Shown here piece by piece: positions 3,488-12,776 of a stretch of DNA of 64,000 nucleotides. Positions within the stretch are counted from its first letter, which is position 1; each line of letters starts with the position of its first letter. The notes under the pieces are model-generated. The model searched no databases. It saw only the letters and a program-made list of their open reading frames with translations, and had not been told where the DNA came from. The translations under genes and the position numbers were made by a program. Origin of the DNA: Eubacteriales bacterium (GTDB lineage Bacteria; Bacillota; Clostridia; Oscillospirales; CAG-272); the NCBI GenBank assembly GCA_045535815.1, contig JAZSMJ010000066.1, forward strand, positions 890 through 64,889, written 5' to 3'.

Positions 3488-4393
3488 TTATTTGTTGTGA
3501 GAGCTGTTACCATACAAATCATGCTGAACTAACGCTGAGTAATAGTTGCCGATGGTAATCGAGGCATTGTACAGCGTTGTCAGTAGATATTGCTTGATGT
3601 TTCGAATTTTCGTTGTGTTTTCTTTCAGGCAGTTAAATACGAATTTGATATGCTCTATGTCCAGCTTTAGTAGCCGTGAGCGAACTATCTCGGAAGGGTG
3701 GTCTGTTCCTGCCACGCGTATATACCTTTTCGTGGAACATACCGTTTCCACTAGAAGTTCTAGTATTTCCTTCAGCCTGTCACGGTCAAGGGGGAGTTCA
3801 TCGTACAGAATGTCATACGAGATATTTTCCTTTATGATTTCTCTGTATATCTCTATATCACGCATATTCGCTTCGTTTCGTTTCGATTCAAGGTCGGTAA
3901 GCACGGAAAGATGTTTACCATCGGAATAGAATGAATCGATGTTTTGTGAGTTAGTAATTGATTTGTGAGTATTTGTTATATCTATATTTAATTGTGTGGG
4001 ATTTTCCTGTTCAGGCTTTGCCAAGATAGGTTTATCCAAGCTTGGATTTTCCAAAACTGGATTTTCCCGTTCAGGTTTTTCCGGTTTAGGTGAAGGCTGT
4101 TTCGGCTGTTCTAGTATAGTGTATTCGATAGAACCGAGCTGACCGTTGGTGCTCCGAACACGCTCACGAATCACATATCCGTGTTCTTCCAGTTCTCTCA
4201 CTCCGGCACAAATGCTGTCTACACCGTCCTTACAGATATGGGCAAGACCTTTAGTGGTGTAGTCCCAATCTTCGGGAAGGGAGAGCATAAGTGAGAGCAA
4301 ACCTTTTGCTTTCAGTGATAAATCCTTATTCCGCAGATGATAATTAGCCATCACGGTATAATCCTTTGTCTTTTCAATTCGGAATACTGCCAT
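3488..4393 (-). CDS. Replication-initiator-type winged-HTH protein typical of Firmicutes ICEs/plasmids
   Basis: Start MAVFRIEKTKDYTVMANYHLRNKDLSLKAKGLLSLMLSLPEDWDYT... is the conserved N-terminal module of this family as I recall it; P/E-rich linker; RBS GAGGGA. Confidence 0.6.
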   Translation of the reverse strand: MAVFRIEKTKDYTVMANYHLRNKDLSLKAKGLLSLMLSLPEDWDYTTKGLAHICKDGVDSICAGVRELEEHGYVIRERVRSTNGQLGSIEYTILEQPKQPSPKPEKPERENPVLENPSLDKPILAKPEQENPTQLNIDITNTHKSITNSQNIDSFYSDGKHLSVLTDLESKRNEANMRDIEIYREIIKENISYDILYDELPLDRDRLKEILELLVETVCSTKRYIRVAGTDHPSEIVRSRLLKLDIEHIKFVFNCLKENTTKIRNIKQYLLTTLYNASITIGNYYSALVQHDLYGNSSHNK

Positions 4394-5009
4394 GCGTGTC
4401 TCCCTCGTTGTCCAGCGACAGAATTGCTGGTCCGTATCTGCTGATAAGAATTGCATTGATAACAAGCCGAAATGCTTCTTCATCGTATATCTCGGGGTCG
4501 GCAAGTTCATCCGCTTTCATGTCGTTTGATTGTGTGTACAGGCTTTTCGCCGCTTTATACAGTGCATATTGTTTGATATTCATGCCGAGAAGCTGTGTGA
4601 AACGAAAATCTATTCTCAGATTTGTGAAGCACTTTGACATACGGCTGAACAAGTCGGCATCTGCGGTCAGTAGATAGAGAGCCGCATAATATACGTTGGT
4701 GCCCTGTTCTTCAAAATGATCGTATTCAAAATGATCGTATATGATTTGTGTATGAGTGAATCTGTGCTTGTGATTTTTGTCTTTCCATAAAGGTTGATCG
4801 GCATATCTCAATAAGTGTTTCAATCGATTTTGTAGGTGCATATGCTCCAAGAAAAAAGAACGAAACAGCAGCTTATATTCTACAACACCCGTTTCGATTC
4901 TCTCGCTCATCCAAGGGCATATGATCTCTCTGCATCGTCCGCGAATGAATCGCAGGCAATATTTACAGTTCATATCCTGACGTTTGTATTTATATTCTTG
5001 ACGTTTCAT
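4374..5009 (-). CDS. ICE-associated protein of unknown function (DUF6075-like by recollection)
   Basis: Preferred start ATG 5009 with GGAGG upstream; sits between the ParB-like and Rep-like genes, as is usual in such elements. Confidence 0.45.
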   Translation of the reverse strand: MKRQEYKYKRQDMNCKYCLRFIRGRCREIICPWMSERIETGVVEYKLLFRSFFLEHMHLQNRLKHLLRYADQPLWKDKNHKHRFTHTQIIYDHFEYDHFEEQGTNVYYAALYLLTADADLFSRMSKCFTNLRIDFRFTQLLGMNIKQYALYKAAKSLYTQSNDMKADELADPEIYDEEAFRLVINAILISRYGPAILSLDNEGDTHGSIPN

Positions 5010-5087
5010 GATTTCCTCCGATAGATTTTGAAATGACAAACGTCCGATGAGATGAATCACTCAACATCGGACGTTCAAATAAGATAT

Positions 5088-5963
5088 TCAGTTATTGCTT
5101 GTTTTCTGATTTATATTTTCTATTCGCCGTTTATACCACATATCCAGCAGGCGGTAGATTGTTTTTTCGATTTGCTTTGAAGTATAGCTTTTTGGGAAGT
5201 ATTTGCGGAGTTTTTCCAATGTGAGTGTCAGATTCCCACTCTCGGGTTTCTTTTGCTCGGTCATAATCCCCAGCATGGAGTCATCGTCCAATTTGCCTTC
5301 TTGGGACAGTTTCTTCATGCGCTGAGCCTGTGAGAGCGATGGCGTAGCCTGTTCGCTGTCGATAGTGTCAATCAGTAGCAATTGTTCATCAGGTTTCAGA
5401 TAAGAGAGTTCAACAGCAGGCGTCATGCCTATTTTTCCATTATCAACCATTTGTTGAAGTTCAGGCTTCAGTTCGGTCAGTCGTATGTATCTCTGTATTT
5501 GTGCGCGGCTTTCACCTGATTCCTTCGCTATTATTTCATCTGAACGCAACTTCGTCTCAACTTGAGACGAAGTTAAATCACGCCGTGCTCCTTGCCGTTT
5601 TATTGCATCGATTTTCATCTTGTATGCTTTTGCACGTTCGCTGGGGAGAATAAACTCTCTCTGCAAATTGCTGTCTACCATGATGATTGTAGCGACATCT
5701 CTGTCCACATCTCGGACAATTACGGGCATTGTATTAAATCCGGCTTGTTCACAGGCATATTTGCGTCTGTGTCCTGAAATCAGTTCGTATAATCCATTTT
5801 CAATCGGTCTGACAATTGCCGGAACTATAATGCCATATTCTTTGACGCTCTCTATTGTCTGCTTCATGGAGTCATCATCTCTGATGCTGAATGGGTGATT
5901 GGGAAATGAAACAATTTTGCTGATTGGTAAATTCATTATTTGTTCCGTAGAGCCCTTTAACAT
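5088..5963 (-). CDS. ParB/Spo0J-like nuclease-domain partition protein (mobile-element type)
   Basis: ParB-N motifs ...IVPAIVRP...YELISGHRRKYACEQAG...; HTH region SGESRAQIQRYIRL; RBS AGGAGG. Confidence 0.8.
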   Translation of the reverse strand: MLKGSTEQIMNLPISKIVSFPNHPFSIRDDDSMKQTIESVKEYGIIVPAIVRPIENGLYELISGHRRKYACEQAGFNTMPVIVRDVDRDVATIIMVDSNLQREFILPSERAKAYKMKIDAIKRQGARRDLTSSQVETKLRSDEIIAKESGESRAQIQRYIRLTELKPELQQMVDNGKIGMTPAVELSYLKPDEQLLLIDTIDSEQATPSLSQAQRMKKLSQEGKLDDDSMLGIMTEQKKPESGNLTLTLEKLRKYFPKSYTSKQIEKTIYRLLDMWYKRRIENINQKTSNN

Positions 5964-5994
5964 TTTGACCTCCTGCTATGCAAACAATTCCTTG

Positions 5995-6279
5995 TTATAA
6001 TTTTAACTGTATGTATGCTTCCAACAGTTCTTGAAGAGTTCTCCCGGATGTTTCATCGAAGGAAAGTTTTACGGTATATTTTCCGTGCTTATAACAATAA
6101 GGATTTTTAATTTGCTTTACAAAATTATTTATCCGTTCTTCTTGCGTAAGATCTGTGTTAATTTTGACATCCCGAATATCTACTAGCTCATCACGGTCAA
6201 CTGTAAGCAAATCAACATTTTTTAGATTGTCAAGAGTTGTTTTCTTGTTTTCATTATCAGTTATATTATGCTCATCCAT
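5995..6279 (-). CDS. Small conserved ICE-associated protein (DUF6870-like by recollection)
   Basis: 94 aa with ...IKNPYCYKHGKYTVKLSF... motif. Confidence 0.4.
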   Translation of the reverse strand: MDEHNITDNENKKTTLDNLKNVDLLTVDRDELVDIRDVKINTDLTQEERINNFVKQIKNPYCYKHGKYTVKLSFDETSGRTLQELLEAYIQLKL

Positions 6280-6389
6280 CTTGAATCCTTCACTAAAAGT
6301 ATAACGACGATCATTGATAGGATACTCTTTGATCGCCGCTATCGCATCAGAAGCACCTCCATTCCTTTTTAATTTGCAGAAAAAGAAAA

Positions 6390-6436
6390 ATAGGACTAAA
6401 GCGACGCCCGTTTGTCGGGTTTTGCTTTAGTCCTAT
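6390..6436. repeat. Nested hairpin at the recombinase break point
   Basis: ATAGGACTAAAGC (6390-6402) is the perfect complement of GCTTTAGTCCTAT (6424-6436); inner CCCG/CGGG stem. Confidence 0.6.
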
Positions 6437-6445
6437 TATATCAGA

Positions 6446-6586
6446 GGCATCTGCGTATATTCCGTAAAGCTCCCATCCGTCTTTATTCGATATGTATTTT
6501 TCAAAAAAGCTTTTCTGATTTTCAAGCGAGAGCGCCTGGTCGCTCTTGTCTGTCGATACACGGCAGTATACCGCTATCCGCTTCAA
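6446..6586 (-). pseudogene. N-terminal ~46-codon fragment of a serine recombinase (resolvase/invertase catalytic domain)
   Basis: MKRIAVYCRVSTDKSDQALSLENQKSFFEKYISNKDGWELYGIYAD matches the catalytic-Ser N-terminus. The remaining 33 codons of ORF 6347-6586 are unrelated sequence. Confidence 0.65.
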
Positions 6587-7893: not shown

Positions 7894-7963
7894 CAATTTA
7901 AAAAATATGAGCGGTAAAAAAGATGCATTTTGAAAAGCATTGTGTTCTAAAGGACAATTTTGG

Positions 7964-8003
7964 AAGAATACGGCATACCTCTTTTGAGATATGCCGTATT
8001 CTT
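7964..8003 (+). terminator. 14-bp perfect hairpin after the 6928-7893 gene
   Basis: AAGAATACGGCATA (7964-7977) / TATGCCGTATTCTT (7990-8003); T-poor tail. Confidence 0.45.
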
Positions 8004-8094
8004 GTGTTTGTGTCTACAAATGCAAAATTTATTAGGGAAAATGATGAGATAAAATTATCACTTGGAGTATTTTTTATAAACTTCTCTAAAAGTA

Positions 8095-8123
8095 TTTACA
8101 ATTCGTCGAAACAATGATATAAT
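8095..8123 (+). promoter_or_regulatory. Near-consensus sigma-A-type promoter with extended -10
   Basis: TTTACA (8095-8100), 17-nt spacer, TGaTATAAT (8115-8123). Confidence 0.45.
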
Positions 8124-8129
8124 TTTATT

Positions 8130-8340
8130 GTCACACAAACTTAATAATCGGTATTAATGATATTTTCTGCTTTAAGGAATATTATACCTTTTTTTGAGCA
8201 TACCTAAATTAATGGACTTGGTAAAAATGCAAGCTCCTCTAGTTTGGGTATGTCTGAAATATTCATATTCCGGTTAGTTTGTGTGACAACAATCGGAGTT
8301 TGCGTTTTTCGGTGCGTGGCTTCGGTTACGCACCTTTTTA
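8130..8340 (+). ncRNA. Candidate ~210-nt structured RNA (rod-like nested helices), unclassified
   Basis: Bounded by the promoter above and the terminator at 8311-8340. Nested pairings 8129-8141/8276-8288 (13 bp), 8177-8183/8258-8264, 8199-8204/8247-8252. No ORF with an RBS. Confidence 0.35.
8311..8340 (+). terminator. Rho-independent terminator (plus-strand orientation)
   Basis: GGTGCGT / ACGCACC stem followed by a TTTTTATATTCTT tail. The minus-strand reading lacks a T tail. Confidence 0.6.
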
Positions 8341-8358
8341 TATTCTTATATCAAAAAA

Positions 8359-8598
8359 TTAATCAGTGCTTTCATCAAAAGTTTTAAACAGATCGTCTAC
8401 GGCAGTGCCAAGAATTTTCGCAATGACAAAGATCTCTTTATCAGTCGCAAGTCTTACTTGACCTTCTAATTTTGAATAACTTGTAGGATTGATATCACAG
8501 CCCATTGTTTGCATTTTTGAAATAAAATCTCTTTGTGATATTCCTTGTTTTTTACGCAGTTGTTCAATGTTTCGTCCAACAATATTTGCGTTGCCGTA
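8359..8598 (-). pseudogene. XRE-family HTH regulator with an apparent +1 frameshift directly after its ATG
   Basis: The open frame gives YGNANIVGRNIEQLRKKQGISQRDFISKMQTMGCDINPTSYSKLEGQVRLATDKEIFVIAKILGTAVDDLF..., but TGA lies immediately upstream. The only ATG (8602-8600) is out of frame by one nt, and no ATG/GTG/TTG is in frame near the 5' end. Confidence 0.45.
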
Positions 8599-8635
8599 TC
8601 ATTTTTTCTGGGTTTCAATTCCATCACCACTCGAT

Positions 8636-8728
8636 TATAATTCTGTTATAGAATATTATATAACCGAATAGCATTGACATAATTCTGTAATGGAAGTATA
8701 ATATAAATAATTCCGAAACAGAATTATA
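8636..8728 (+). promoter_or_regulatory. Consensus promoter of the 93-aa gene, bracketed by three operator-like repeats
   Basis: TTGACA (8674-8679), 17-nt spacer, TATAAT (8697-8702). ATAATTCTGT at 8637-8646 (+), 8679-8688 (+) and 8718-8727 (-). Confidence 0.5.
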
Positions 8729-8761
8729 ATTTATGTAAAAATTAACAAGCAAGAGGATGTA

Positions 8762-9043
8762 ATGGTATTGGATGATATAAAAAGCAGCATGGAAATACAA
8801 TGCGTTTTATCATTAAGCGAGAAAAGACAGGAAGTATATAAGCTTGCAAAAGAAAAGGGAATTGTATTAGATGAATCGACGCAAGAGTTTTTTGATTACT
8901 ATTTATTTCGGAAGAAAACCGTAATTCAATATGATGAAGATGAAATTATGATTCTTTCAGTAGAAGGTAATTGGGAAGATGAGGTCCACATTAAGCATGA
9001 TGGAACGTATTCCTGCTTCGGAGGGATTAACTGTATTTTTTAA
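8762..9043 (+). CDS. Small cytoplasmic protein of unknown function (alternative precursor candidate; C-terminus ...SCFGGINCIF)
   Basis: RBS AAGAGGA; own consensus promoter and own terminator; directly upstream of the PqqD/rSAM operon. Confidence 0.55.
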   Translation: MVLDDIKSSMEIQCVLSLSEKRQEVYKLAKEKGIVLDESTQEFFDYYLFRKKTVIQYDEDEIMILSVEGNWEDEVHIKHDGTYSCFGGINCIF

Positions 9044-9063
9044 TAATAAATGTATAATTATTT

Positions 9064-9098
9064 TTCCGGACTGTATTTAAGTCCGGAATTTCTTTTAT
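9064..9098 (+). terminator. Hairpin terminator/attenuator between the 93-aa gene and the PqqD operon
   Basis: TTCCGGAC / GTCCGGAA stem followed by TTTCTTTTAT. Confidence 0.55.
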
Positions 9099-9115
9099 AT
9101 AACCGTTCTATATAT

Positions 9116-9156
9116 CATAGAATTATATAGACAAGTATGATTTTTTATGGTATAAT
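9116..9156 (+). promoter_or_regulatory. Promoter of the PqqD-rSAM operon with an abutting operator-like motif
   Basis: CATAGAATTATA (9116-9127), then TAGACA (9128-9133), 17-nt spacer, TGgTATAAT (9148-9156). Confidence 0.5.
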
Positions 9157-9182
9157 ATGTCAAAAGACAATGGGGGATCAAT

Positions 9183-9461
9183 ATGAAAAAGTACATAAAA
9201 AATAAAACCATGGAATATATCGAACTTGATGAATCGGAAACAGTGATTAATGACATTGAAAGCGGAGATATACATTATATTGATGAAGTATCAACGATTA
9301 TTTTAAAGCAACTTGAAAAAGCATTATCGTTTGAAGAACTGATTGTAGCATTGCTTGAGCTGTTTGAAGGGAATGAACATGAGATCAGACAGGATACCGC
9401 CGAGTTCTTGAATGAGCTTGTACAGAAAAATATCATCCTTGAGGTAGAAGATGAAGATTGA
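9183..9461 (+). CDS. PqqD-family protein (stand-alone RiPP recognition element)
   Basis: 92 aa. The pattern ...GDIHYIDEVSTIILKQLEKALSFEELIVALLELFEGNEHEIRQDTAEFLNELVQKNII fits the PqqD fold signature. Its stop overlaps the rSAM start by 11 nt. Confidence 0.8.
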   Translation: MKKYIKNKTMEYIELDESETVINDIESGDIHYIDEVSTIILKQLEKALSFEELIVALLELFEGNEHEIRQDTAEFLNELVQKNIILEVEDED

Positions 9462-10467
9462 ATCTGTCTATTTTGAACTGACGAATATCTGTAATCTGAA
9501 CTGCAAAACCTGCTATAACCGCTCCGGATTGAATAATGAACGCCGGGAGATACCTATAGACGTATTATTTGAGTCAATCGAGAGATTTAATCGGTACGGA
9601 CTGAAATCAGTTCAATTAAGCGGTGGAGAAACAATGCTTTATACAGACATTGTGCCGCTTTTTGAGAAGATTCACAAAGTGCCTGACCTGCCGTTTTCAA
9701 TTTCTACGAACGGTACTGTGCACGGAGATTTATTGCTTGATTATTACAGAAGAGTTCCAAATCTGTATGTTCAGCTTAGTCTGGACGGAGCAAATGAGAA
9801 AGTTAATGCACGGACTCGCGGCAAAGGAAATTTTGAAAGATCTTTGCAGTTTCTCAAAGGATTGCATGACAGCGAGCGTCCTGTAGGCTATCGTATAAAA
9901 ATGGTATTGTCAAAGTATAACGTGGATAATATTCCCGATTATTTCCGTCTTGCCTCAGAGTATGACTGTGAGCCGCGTTTTTCATTTATGAATTCTGTTG
10001 GCAACGGAGAAAAAAACTGGTCTGATATGGCGCTGTCCGATGCAGAGAAAATGAAAGCATTGCGGTATATTGATCAAGCGAACAAAGCTTATAATATGGA
10101 AGTAACGCTTCCGTTCTGTGCGTTCAGCTGCCCGTTTGCAAGTGATGATCCGTATAATGTCAAGCTGAGCTGCATGGTGAAGCCGAACGGAGATATTATG
10201 CCTTGCCAGGGATTATACGATCCGGTATTCACGCTTAGTAATATAAATAAATTTGATGAGAACGAGCTTCAGCAAAACATGGAAAAGCTCTGCAATATTG
10301 CGTGTAAACGGCTGGATATGGACTATGGGTGCAAAAAATGCTTGATTGAACCGCTGTGCAAGAGAGGTTGCCCTGCTATGGCGGTGCTGAATAGCGGTGA
10401 TATTCTCGGAACTGATAAAGAGTGTTCATTCCGCCTCAAGCATTATTTGAAATATCAGCTTAGATAA
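9451..10467 (+). CDS. Radical SAM enzyme with C-terminal SPASM domain (peptide-maturase type)
   Basis: CNLNCKTC (CxxxCxxC) at residues 14-21; SGGE motif; C-terminal Cys cluster ...CMVKPNGDIMPCQG...CKKCLIEPLCKRGCP... Confidence 0.9.
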   Translation: MKIESVYFELTNICNLNCKTCYNRSGLNNERREIPIDVLFESIERFNRYGLKSVQLSGGETMLYTDIVPLFEKIHKVPDLPFSISTNGTVHGDLLLDYYRRVPNLYVQLSLDGANEKVNARTRGKGNFERSLQFLKGLHDSERPVGYRIKMVLSKYNVDNIPDYFRLASEYDCEPRFSFMNSVGNGEKNWSDMALSDAEKMKALRYIDQANKAYNMEVTLPFCAFSCPFASDDPYNVKLSCMVKPNGDIMPCQGLYDPVFTLSNINKFDENELQQNMEKLCNIACKRLDMDYGCKKCLIEPLCKRGCPAMAVLNSGDILGTDKECSFRLKHYLKYQLR

Positions 10468-10505
10468 GAGTATTATTGGAGTTTTCGTACATAAAAAGGA
10501 TCAAA

Positions 10506-11981
10506 ATGAATAATACGAAAATATTAAAAGCAGTTCTTGCCGTTAAAGGAGAATATACCATTACTGTTTTGGGCGTAAGTATGATGCCCGTGTTGAAACA
10601 CGGGCAGACTGTGAAAGTTGTTAAACAGAATAGCTATGTTGTCGGAGATATTCTTGTGTATGAATATAAGAATGAAGGTTTGCTTGCGCACAGAGCGCTG
10701 AAAATTGAAAACGGACGCTATTTCTGCAAGGGTGACAATTCTTTCAGATTGGAAGATATTACTGCGGAACAAGTTATTGGAAAAATTGAACTTGATGAAG
10801 ATGAAAACCGTACCGCAGAGTTTATTGAAGCGTCATATGCTATAAACAGACTGTTCCGAAAGAACGGATATGACATAGAGAAAACAAGATCACATCCGCA
10901 ATATGAAGTATATAAGCATACATATATTGATCGAATACAAAAAAATGAGCTTGTGGTAAATATTCGCAAGCTGGCGAATGGAGTTTCGGTCGAAGATGCG
11001 GAAACAATACGTGCGTTAGAAAAACATAAATGCTTTTATTTGCTGTCTCAGATTCCATCATATAGATCCAAACAGATAATGCAGCTTGCGGTAAGTCAAG
11101 CTGCGACGAAAATTCGATATAATACTTGCGCAGAAGTCTTCGCGGATCTAAAAAATATTCCGTATGCCGTTATCAAAGGCGCAGTATTATCTGATCAGAT
11201 CTACGGTAATTCTGCATATAGAACGTCGGGTGATATTGATCTGTTGATTGCTCCTGATAACGTTCAGGAAGTAAAATCTATTTTAAAAAAACACGGATTT
11301 ATACAAGGATATGTAAACGGCAATGATATCGTTCCGTACAGCAGGCAGGAGCTGATATATCAAAAAGCTTTTACGCATCAGATGGCAGCATTTGTGAAGC
11401 CAACCGGAGTTATGCTGTTTCCGTTTGTTAATATTGATGTTAATCTGGATATATTCTGGGGTGAAAGCGAACGAAAAGCGGATATGCAATCGTTTTTGCA
11501 AAACAGGGAAGATTACAATGTGCTTGGCGTAGAGGTGCAAAAGCTAAAACCGATATACGAATTTATTTCACTTTGCATGCATCACTACAAAGATTGTAAT
11601 TCATTGTATCTGCTCTCGGAGCGAGGCGTCAACCTTTCGTTGTTCTGCGATATTTATTACTATATAACGAAAGTGGCCCCGGATCCTTTTCAACTGAAAA
11701 ACGCGTGCGATTCCTATGGCGTGACGGATTATGTGGCGTATTGCGTATTCCATACTTATAGATTGTTTGAAGATGCTGAGCTTTTGAAATATCATCAAAT
11801 TTTGGCGCCGGGCGGAATCGGTAATCACTACTTTCGATTTGGTTTAACGGAGGATGAATATAAATATCCGGGGTTCGGTATTTCTGAATACGTTTTGAAT
11901 GATTCGTTTCGAGAACGTTTTCTTTCATGCCTTAATGAAAAGGATATTGAAAAAATAGAGATAAACAAAAAGTTTATGTAA
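10506..11981 (+). CDS. Fusion: N-terminal SipW/ER-type (S26B/S24-like) serine peptidase domain without a TM, plus C-terminal NTP_transf_5-type nucleotidyltransferase
   Basis: VSMMP ... GDILVY ... AHRAL ... CKGDNS parallels the B. subtilis SipW motifs GSMEP/GDVITF/THRIV/KGDNN. No hydrophobic N-terminal segment. The C-terminal part has SGDIDLLIAP. Confidence 0.7.
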   Translation: MNNTKILKAVLAVKGEYTITVLGVSMMPVLKHGQTVKVVKQNSYVVGDILVYEYKNEGLLAHRALKIENGRYFCKGDNSFRLEDITAEQVIGKIELDEDENRTAEFIEASYAINRLFRKNGYDIEKTRSHPQYEVYKHTYIDRIQKNELVVNIRKLANGVSVEDAETIRALEKHKCFYLLSQIPSYRSKQIMQLAVSQAATKIRYNTCAEVFADLKNIPYAVIKGAVLSDQIYGNSAYRTSGDIDLLIAPDNVQEVKSILKKHGFIQGYVNGNDIVPYSRQELIYQKAFTHQMAAFVKPTGVMLFPFVNIDVNLDIFWGESERKADMQSFLQNREDYNVLGVEVQKLKPIYEFISLCMHHYKDCNSLYLLSERGVNLSLFCDIYYYITKVAPDPFQLKNACDSYGVTDYVAYCVFHTYRLFEDAELLKYHQILAPGGIGNHYFRFGLTEDEYKYPGFGISEYVLNDSFRERFLSCLNEKDIEKIEINKKFM

Positions 11982-11996
11982 ATACGGGGATTTTAA

Positions 11997-12776
11997 ATGA
12001 GATTACATATTCAACTTCCATATCACGAAGATAGCTACACGGTCGATACCGAGTGTGAAGAAATAATCAGCGCACTGCGAATTACATACGGCAAATTTTG
12101 TAATACACTCGAGTGTGAAGATATGTATGTTTATAGGATAATCCGAGATGGGGAATCATATAAATTAACGTATAACGGACACAAGAGAAATACGGATACA
12201 CCTCTTCAAATTCTGCACAATGCGATGTTTACACATAAAAAGATATCCCCGGGTATTTTTGCACTTCATGCAGGCGGTGTTGAGTGGGGCGGTAAAGCAT
12301 ATATTTTCTGTGCTGCCACGTCTACGGGAAAAACTACTTTGACTGCATATCTGACACAAAAGGGACTGAACTATATTGCAGATGATTGTGTTTTTGTAAA
12401 TATGAATGATCTGATGGTCTATCCATGCCATACACCTATTCATCTGAGAGACGGCGGATATAAAGTTCTGCGCGATTTGGGAGTGTTGGAAGATCCCGCT
12501 TTCTGTGTGGATGACAGATATGTTTATATGCCCAATAACCTCTCTTCGATGCAGATGGAGCTTGGTGGTATATTTTTTATAAATCGCACTGAGAATGAGA
12601 ACGTTATAGAGATACCCGATAAGGCAACTACCCTGCGGAATCTGATGCTGTCCCCAATTACAAGCTATCCGATGAAGAAAGAGTACATTGCGTTTTTGAA
12701 CAGATTAACACCATATTGCCGTAGCATAAAGTATAGTGATATGGACTACGTGTTAAATAAAATTCTGACAATATAA
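11997..12776 (+). CDS. HPr-kinase-related P-loop protein (RiPP-associated Ser/Thr kinase type)
   Basis: ...FALHAGGVEWGGKAYIFCAATSTGKTTLTAYLTQKGLNYIADDCVF... matches the HprK C-terminal-domain-like core (HA..V, GKT/S, DD). Confidence 0.7.
   Translation: MRLHIQLPYHEDSYTVDTECEEIISALRITYGKFCNTLECEDMYVYRIIRDGESYKLTYNGHKRNTDTPLQILHNAMFTHKKISPGIFALHAGGVEWGGKAYIFCAATSTGKTTLTAYLTQKGLNYIADDCVFVNMNDLMVYPCHTPIHLRDGGYKVLRDLGVLEDPAFCVDDRYVYMPNNLSSMQMELGGIFFINRTENENVIEIPDKATTLRNLMLSPITSYPMKKEYIAFLNRLTPYCRSIKYSDMDYVLNKILTI

Follow-up and report, generated by a model that had tools for sequence, protein, structure and literature searches.

Between positions 8095 and 8340 of the 64-kb stretch of DNA analysed here (the window), a promoter is followed some 210 nt later by an intrinsic terminator on the same strand, and the locus raises the question of what kind of RNA is made there and on what it acts. 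The sequence-only reading had described an orphan transcription unit for a rod-like RNA, had offered a regulatory sRNA, a 6S-like decoy, a type I toxin/antitoxin RNA or a MITE-like foldback as candidates, and had named an Rfam scan, covariation among homologous loci and a genome-wide copy search as ways to choose among them. We find it likely that the unit is an intact, orphaned copy of a promoter-leader-terminator module that belongs to an attenuator family of gut Clostridia. The window unit is not an sRNA class of its own, and the locus adds decayed context only.

The boundaries of the unit are readily defined. The promoter lies at 8095-8123 on the plus strand, with a -35 hexamer at 8095-8100, a 17-nt spacer and a TG-extended, perfect -10 element at 8115-8123; a consensus scan matches 11 of 12 positions, which bears out the near-consensus extended -10 promoter first proposed. 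The intrinsic terminator at 8311-8339, likewise as described, consists of a 10-bp stem (stem-loop 8311-8334) with six G-C pairs, a UUCG loop and a tract of five Us, and the 5′ end of the RNA is predicted at 8129, ≈6 nt past the conserved extended -10. The resulting 212-nt plus-strand transcript folds with -72.7 kcal/mol, compared to -41.4 ± 3.9 kcal/mol in dinucleotide shuffles (z = -7.98); the minus strand of the unit folds less well (z = -4.96), because several of the pairs are G-U. We find no ORF with a ribosome-binding site inside the unit and none that is conserved between paralogs, as candidate frames are broken by indels in every frame, and a coding reading is therefore rejected. A search of the whole window against Rfam 15 (4227 families) at the gathering threshold returns no match, a permissive scan (E ≤ 10) of 7900-8700 yields chance-level matches only, and the same permissive scan of 18 other copies finds only tRNAs and one chance-level snoRNA match, all outside the units. 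The initial picture of a structured, non-coding plus-strand RNA unit of no catalogued class thus holds on both fold and Rfam evidence.

Copies of the unit elsewhere allow its structure to be examined comparatively. A DNA search of the genome from which the window derives reveals two more places at which the final 65 nt recur with ≈90% identity, and both are complete paralogous units with their own promoters and a closing helix that is different in sequence but still paired. A covariance model, R1, built from three copies of this genome (window copy included), finds five copies in this genome, two of them divergent, with rods that are only ≈70% identical to one another. The window copy scores 217.8 bits over model positions 1-209, a score that is partly circular given that this copy is one of the three seeds. 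A naive all-against-all covariation scan of a MAFFT alignment gave mostly wobble noise, with the P1 and terminator pairs alone standing out, and a covariance-model alignment of 108 units, 104 of them distinct, was therefore built. In this alignment, 91.6% of cells in the nested structure are paired versus 76.0% with shuffled partners, double changes occur in 47 of 56 pairs, and the covariation score is 0.444 versus 0.185 in shuffles, a value that none of 500 shuffles reached; after sliding by 1-3 columns, structures score ≤0.07. The helices thus covary among homologues.

The individual helices follow from the minimum free energy (MFE) fold and the alignment together. The closing helix P1 pairs 8129-8141 with its perfect complement at 8276-8288, exactly as first noted; the 64-kb window contains this 13-mer at exactly two places, here and as its reverse complement at 8276-8288, compared to a mean of 0.06 matches in shuffles, none of which (0/100) reached two, and with their flanks the closing arms span 17 nt at 94% complementarity. 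P1b, in which 8146-8151 pair with 8270-8275 in the MFE fold, extends P1 past a conserved internal loop and covaries between copies as helix 2 of the family; helices 1 and 2 together are ≈96% paired, with changes on both sides in 13 of 15 pairs. P2 (8157-8185, MFE fold), the hairpin of a three-way junction, corresponds to family helix 3, which is the weakest at 77.7% paired yet has double changes in 7 of 7 pairs; compared to its closest relatives the window copy carries a G-C to A-U double change here that keeps the pairing, as judged by eye. A U-rich strand (8186-8195) joins P2 to P3 and is almost invariant in alignments of 28 and 79 units. P3, a long hairpin at 8193-8259 in the MFE fold (8193-8211 with 8240-8259) that bears hairpin P4 at its tip, corresponds to helices 6 and 7, 93-94% paired with double changes in 10 of 10 pairs, and the terminator is family helix 10, 99.5% paired. 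P1/P1b, P3 and the terminator are the best-supported helices. Of the two further nested helices proposed inside P1, one (8199-8204 with 8247-8252) falls within the covarying P3, and the other (8177-8183 with 8258-8264) is perfect in the window copy but is not a feature of the family, where it is 60.4% paired versus 60.6% in shuffles, 282 of 500 of which score as high. These data are best modelled as a rod that opens into a three-way junction of P1b, P2 and P3 with conserved joining strands.

The promoter, too, is conserved in the family. Among 134 distinct upstream regions of family units, 128 match the -10 at five or more of six positions, 120 carry the extended TG, and 124 place the -10 element 5-6 nt before the first base of P1; the window copy likewise has its own extended -10 promoter 5-6 nt ahead of P1.

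The family is widespread. The closest relatives of the window copy, at 86-92% identity, are found in four other genera, which supports its membership independently of the model score; within the same taxonomic family, DNA matches occur in 87 of 201 genomes and 60 of 97 genera. By the model, 55 of the 151 genomes sampled from the order, spread over 19 of 30 families, have matches, as do 38 of the 150 sampled from the class, where one genome has up to 14. An exact 22-nt motif from the 3′ tail recovers at least 120 stretches from one-genome-per-species contigs, and among the stretches listed nearly all are gut or rumen MAGs assigned to Oscillospiraceae, Acutalibacteraceae, Ruminococcus, Eubacteriales or Clostridia. 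The exact tail pattern has no match in IMG/VR viral contigs and BLAST finds none in plasmids; in phage records BLAST finds only three faecal "Bacteriophage sp." contigs, which are unverified, and two of these three carry full units by the model. Tandem pairs or arrays of units are frequent (L012:1187-1718, L014:702-1560, L038:1077-1616, L055, L044 and L090), and in some arrays the peptide gene between two units is truncated. Shorter variants of ≈80-165 nt keep the tail and terminator while the upstream domain is reduced or different (L030:1403-1565, L033:1499-1663, L036:1498-1658 and L099:3351-3431); many are among the order and class model matches, and they may constitute a second subclass of the family. 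The family is absent from Rfam 15 and is apparently undescribed: we find no description in the literature covered, which for the human-microbiome catalogue of structured RNAs (PMC8040213) means 200 of the 408 supplementary files, searched for the motif.

What lies behind these units speaks to their function. We asked, for 157 units with enough downstream sequence, which are followed on the same strand by an ORF that has a Shine-Dalgarno motif and a length of ≥30 codons, and find that 130 (83%) precede such an ORF, the start of which lies at a median of 14 nt past the unit. Several of the other 27 units are the first of a tandem pair (e.g., L012) or have a weaker Shine-Dalgarno motif missed by the filter. 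The other four copies in this genome each have a gene directly behind them (4/5 copies). This position is at odds with the free-standing sRNA that had been suggested from the window alone, and position, spacing and the built-in terminator together argue that the family is a cis-acting, riboswitch-like transcription attenuator.

The downstream genes are diverse. The 126 distinct proteins comprise 22 six-Cys peptides, 24 lipoprotein-like proteins, nine with an N-terminal zinc ribbon, 22 other membrane proteins and 49 others, and Pfam and NCBIfam searches return few matches (zinc ribbon, LiaF-like and SHOCT domains). The six-Cys peptide, the commonest product behind the leader, is ≈55-70 residues long, lacks a signal peptide and has no Pfam or NCBIfam match (examples at L010:637-801:+, L011:1731-1934:+ and L003:850-1011:-); its family, which forms at least 1310 clusters at 90% identity, is called "hypothetical protein" in every source that names it. 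Downstream proteins of at least 150 residues contain 2.3% Cys compared to 1.6% in other ORFs of the same loci (L002-L159), with p = 0.005 in a one-sided Mann-Whitney test on samples that are not independent, and shorter downstream proteins have a median of 4.9% Cys. This enrichment is a possible hint at the sensed signal, a lead rather than a result. We conclude that the family normally heads genes for surface proteins and small cysteine-rich proteins in gut Clostridia.

The window copy departs from this arrangement at a sharply defined point. BLAST against the other loci and a five-way alignment show that similarity to the four closest relatives runs from ≈8040-8070 to ≈8343 and stops within 8343-8350, a few bases past the U tract. 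Beyond this breakpoint the relatives have a ribosome-binding site and then the small six-Cys peptide gene; the window has unrelated sequence and a convergent XRE-type gene at 8359-8602 on the minus strand, with no same-strand gene preceded by a ribosome-binding site ≈15-90 nt past the terminator. The orphan status recognised at the outset is thus correct for this locus. The window copy is a family member by descent and structure, an orphaned leader with intact switch elements, from which a rearrangement a few bases past the U tract appears to have removed the controlled gene. If its promoter fires, it is predicted to yield only a terminated RNA of ≈210 nt or read-through antisense into the XRE gene at 8359-8602.

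The surroundings hold several further features. The XRE-type helix-turn-helix gene (window 8359-8640, minus strand) is open for ≈80 codons with an in-frame stop ahead, and its sole upstream ATG (8602-8600) is in another frame, such that its start looks frameshifted. Beyond it lies a divergent, perfect consensus promoter at 8674-8702, flanked by 17-nt direct repeats at 8637-8653 and 8679-8695 that may be operators. Behind this promoter, the plus strand of 8674-12776 encodes a 93-residue ORF, a PqqD-like protein and a radical SAM/SPASM maturase, followed by a signal-peptidase-like domain fused to NTP_transf_5 and an HprK-related kinase; these genes resemble a RiPP-like cluster, with the precursor peptide not among the genes recognised. 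On the other side of the unit, an 18-bp hairpin (7964-8003) with its flanks (7946-8048) recurs directly behind six-Cys peptide genes, e.g., at L003:687-787, and on this basis the window seems to hold the tail of one cassette and the head of the next, out of a tandem array. Further upstream, at 3488-6586 on the minus strand, are ICE/conjugative-type genes encoding DUF6017 with HTH_36, a ParB-like protein and DUF6870, with a serine recombinase N-terminal fragment at 6347-6586, and these neighbours place the unit, as far as gene content can tell, in the cargo region of a mobile element.

At the tip of P3, two mutually exclusive pairings compete for one strand. The local apical hairpin P4 (8214-8237; 8214-8220 with 8230-8237) corresponds to family helices 8 and 9, which are 83-89% paired with double changes in 7 of 9 pairs; its energy is -5.0 kcal/mol in the window copy, compared to a family median of -4.9 kcal/mol. 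The 3′ strand of P4 and its A-rich loop (8223-8237) can instead pair with a 3′ tail strand at 8295-8309, in a pseudoknot of 15 contiguous pairs, including two G-U, that is mutually exclusive with P4 and workable on the plus strand alone. Differences between paralogs in this pseudoknot are all wobble-compatible, and on the plus strand only. Across the 104 distinct units, 96.7% of pseudoknot cells are paired, with double changes in 8 of 15 pairs; slid controls reach at most 75.7%. In several divergent copies the tail has a new sequence and the loop has changed to match it; in one of these, a paralog of the same genome (L163), the G/C-rich core and the four distal pairs each carry changes in both strands. 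We take such copies as the strongest evidence for the predicted pseudoknot. The duplex is worth -21.0 kcal/mol here, compared to a family median of -18.8 kcal/mol.

The way in which the shared strand varies is informative. The P4 pair at alignment columns 241-317 is UA in 63 units and CG in 11, and the pseudoknot pair at columns 317-452 is AU in 67 and GU in 13; units with G as the shared loop base have C as its P4 partner and retain a wobbling U in the tail. Selection thus acts on both exclusive pairings of one strand, the signature of a switch.

The tail strand has a third potential partner. When one strand of the terminator is barred from pairing in folds of 91 units, a count of what the remaining strand binds points to a putative antiterminator hairpin of 14-15 bp at 8291-8327. 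In it the linker and tail (8291-8305, which includes part of the pseudoknot tail strand) pair with 8314-8327, a segment that takes in the distal part of the terminator 5′ strand, its UUCG loop and the proximal part of the 3′ strand. This hairpin replaced an earlier candidate, invasion of the terminator from the apical loop, which offered only ≈6 bp by eye and was dropped. The antiterminator halves are 96.1% pairable across the 104 distinct units, with variation too low for covariation to support or reject the helix. Its energy is -13.1 kcal/mol here compared to a family median of -16.7 kcal/mol for the antiterminator region, and the terminator, in a comparable range, is at -17.3 kcal/mol with a family median of -17.0 kcal/mol; P4, pseudoknot, antiterminator and terminator are all able to form in the window copy. 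Because three pairings overlap on the same 60 nt, the tail and terminator are kept in sequence and the rod in structure only, although most loci from the genome collection were picked by the exact 22-nt tail pattern, which inflates tail conservation and hides tail variation.

These elements suggest how the leader might operate. The antiterminator is complete ≈7-10 nt before the terminator and can therefore form first, unless its 5′ strand sits in the pseudoknot. With the tail held by the pseudoknot, the antiterminator would be blocked, the terminator would form and an RNA of ≈210 nt would be released; with P4 closed, the free tail would make the antiterminator ahead of the last terminator bases and allow read-through into the gene. 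A protein, a small-molecule ligand or some kinetic cue, acting on the junction and loop that are conserved, could tip the choice between P4 and pseudoknot. Nearest-neighbour energies make the OFF state (pseudoknot and terminator) far more stable than the ON state (P4 and antiterminator), and read-through would therefore need kinetic control or a factor.

An unlikely alternative, which takes the loss of the gene at face value, is that the terminated ≈210-nt product, of this copy or of the family as a whole, is a trans-acting sRNA that pairs with other RNAs via its apical loop or tail; it might target the four paralogous leaders, whose tails and loops are nearly identical and whose pseudoknot/antiterminator balance it would shift. 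The window copy does retain an intact promoter, fold and terminator without a gene, the tails of the three strong paralogs are ≈90% identical such that intermolecular loop-tail pairing is possible, and the double change in P2 has kept that helix paired by eye. However, a fixed short distance before a gene, as found in 83% of units, is needless for a free-standing sRNA; the loop and tail of one molecule match perfectly and covary within copies, which favours intramolecular pairing; and a simple rearrangement accounts for the orphan state.

Somewhat less probable still is that the unit is chiefly the boundary of a mobile or recombining cassette, a module that moves together with accessory genes, with the highly conserved palindromic terminator serving as a recombination target and not as part of a regulated switch. 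The identity of 86-92% to units in other genera, versus ≈70% to paralogs in the same genome, is consistent with such movement, as are the tandem arrays, the ever-changing accessory genes behind the units and the ICE-like surroundings in the window (ParB, DUF6017 and the serine-recombinase fragment). This explanation, however, leaves the covariation of the 150-nt rod, the pseudoknot and the conserved promoter spacing unaccounted for, and the conservation of tail and terminator follows from there being two or three alternative partners per base. We see neither target duplications nor a recombinase association at this locus. Boundary and attenuator readings are compatible, and both can be true.

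A MITE-like foldback, a 6S-type decoy or a type I toxin/antitoxin RNA, each prompted by the rod-like ≈200-nt fold and the 13-bp terminal inverted repeat, is very improbable: the genome holds just five copies by the model, diverged (rods ≈70% identical), each with its own promoter, the "terminal inverted repeat" covaries as a helix and no flanking target-site duplication is seen at the window copy or two paralogs; 6S RNA (RF00013) has no match on the unit and a canonical 6S gene lies on another contig (63.4 bits); and there is no Rfam match and no conserved ORF with a ribosome-binding site, frames being indel-broken between paralogs. A retron msr/msd was also considered and set aside, with no reverse-transcriptase domain in neighbouring ORFs and downstream genes in the family that encode small or surface proteins.

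Returning to the attenuator as the preferred reading, we offer a broader and distinctly tentative proposal: that the family is a new class of riboswitch or protein-gated leader through which, in gut and rumen Clostridia, a global signal acts on a large and variable regulon made up of surface lipoproteins, membrane proteins with a zinc ribbon and the abundant, unannotated six-Cys peptide. The signal might be cysteine, redox state or a metal, as suggested by the Cys-rich regulon, and gene-less copies are possibly kept by trans cross-talk with paralogous leaders via the loop/tail code. If the attenuator model is true, the leader is present in a quarter to a third of the Clostridia genomes sampled and gates many accessory surface- and small-protein genes, and the family would be among the larger remaining "orphan" regulatory RNA classes of the gut microbiota. 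The three-state design (P4 or pseudoknot, antiterminator, terminator) is directly testable by in vitro transcription, and the leader's signal would reveal what uncultured bacteria sense on surface remodelling. For annotation of the window, the unit would be a regulatory module that a rearrangement has stranded at the margin of an integrated element bearing a RiPP-like cluster. What is new here is the orphan with a mapped breakpoint, the co-constraint on P4 and pseudoknot, an explicit definition of the antiterminator with its energies, and the modest Cys enrichment.

Comparison with known systems places the family closest to regulatory leaders. It shares with 6S RNA a rod of ≈200 nt with paired 5′ and 3′ ends, but differs in being multi-copy, in having a terminator before genes and in having a three-way junction and pseudoknot in place of the central bubble. 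Like T-box leaders, it is a Firmicute/Clostridia leader of ≈200 nt with a long irregular stem, several copies and a terminator/antiterminator choice; unlike them, its alignments show no specifier loop or T-box motif that could be noticed on reading (as opposed to in a dedicated search), and neither aminoacyl-tRNA synthetase nor amino-acid genes lie behind it. A T-box leader (RF00230) was rejected for the window unit on these grounds, with no Rfam match on 19 copies and downstream genes unrelated to amino-acid metabolism. The c-di-GMP riboswitches GEMM-I and GEMM-II are multi-copy leaders of surface-protein genes in Clostridia, and the family resembles them in standing in many copies before such genes, which suggests a global signal, while it has no Rfam match and another architecture. 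Among Firmicute transcriptional riboswitches and attenuators are those that work by a relay of terminator, antiterminator and anti-antiterminator, some with a long-range pseudoknot beside the terminator (SAM-I/S-box, ZTP/pfl, preQ1-I and fluoride). Like these, a family leader starts from a promoter of its own, has a structured domain that resembles a sensor and three helices predicted to exclude one another, and ends in a terminator directly ahead of the ribosome-binding site; its pseudoknot would sequester the antiterminator strand and so be the anti-antiterminator. It is unlike them in that its tail and terminator are more conserved in sequence than its rod, and in that many copies per genome stand before unrelated accessory genes and not before those of one metabolic pathway.
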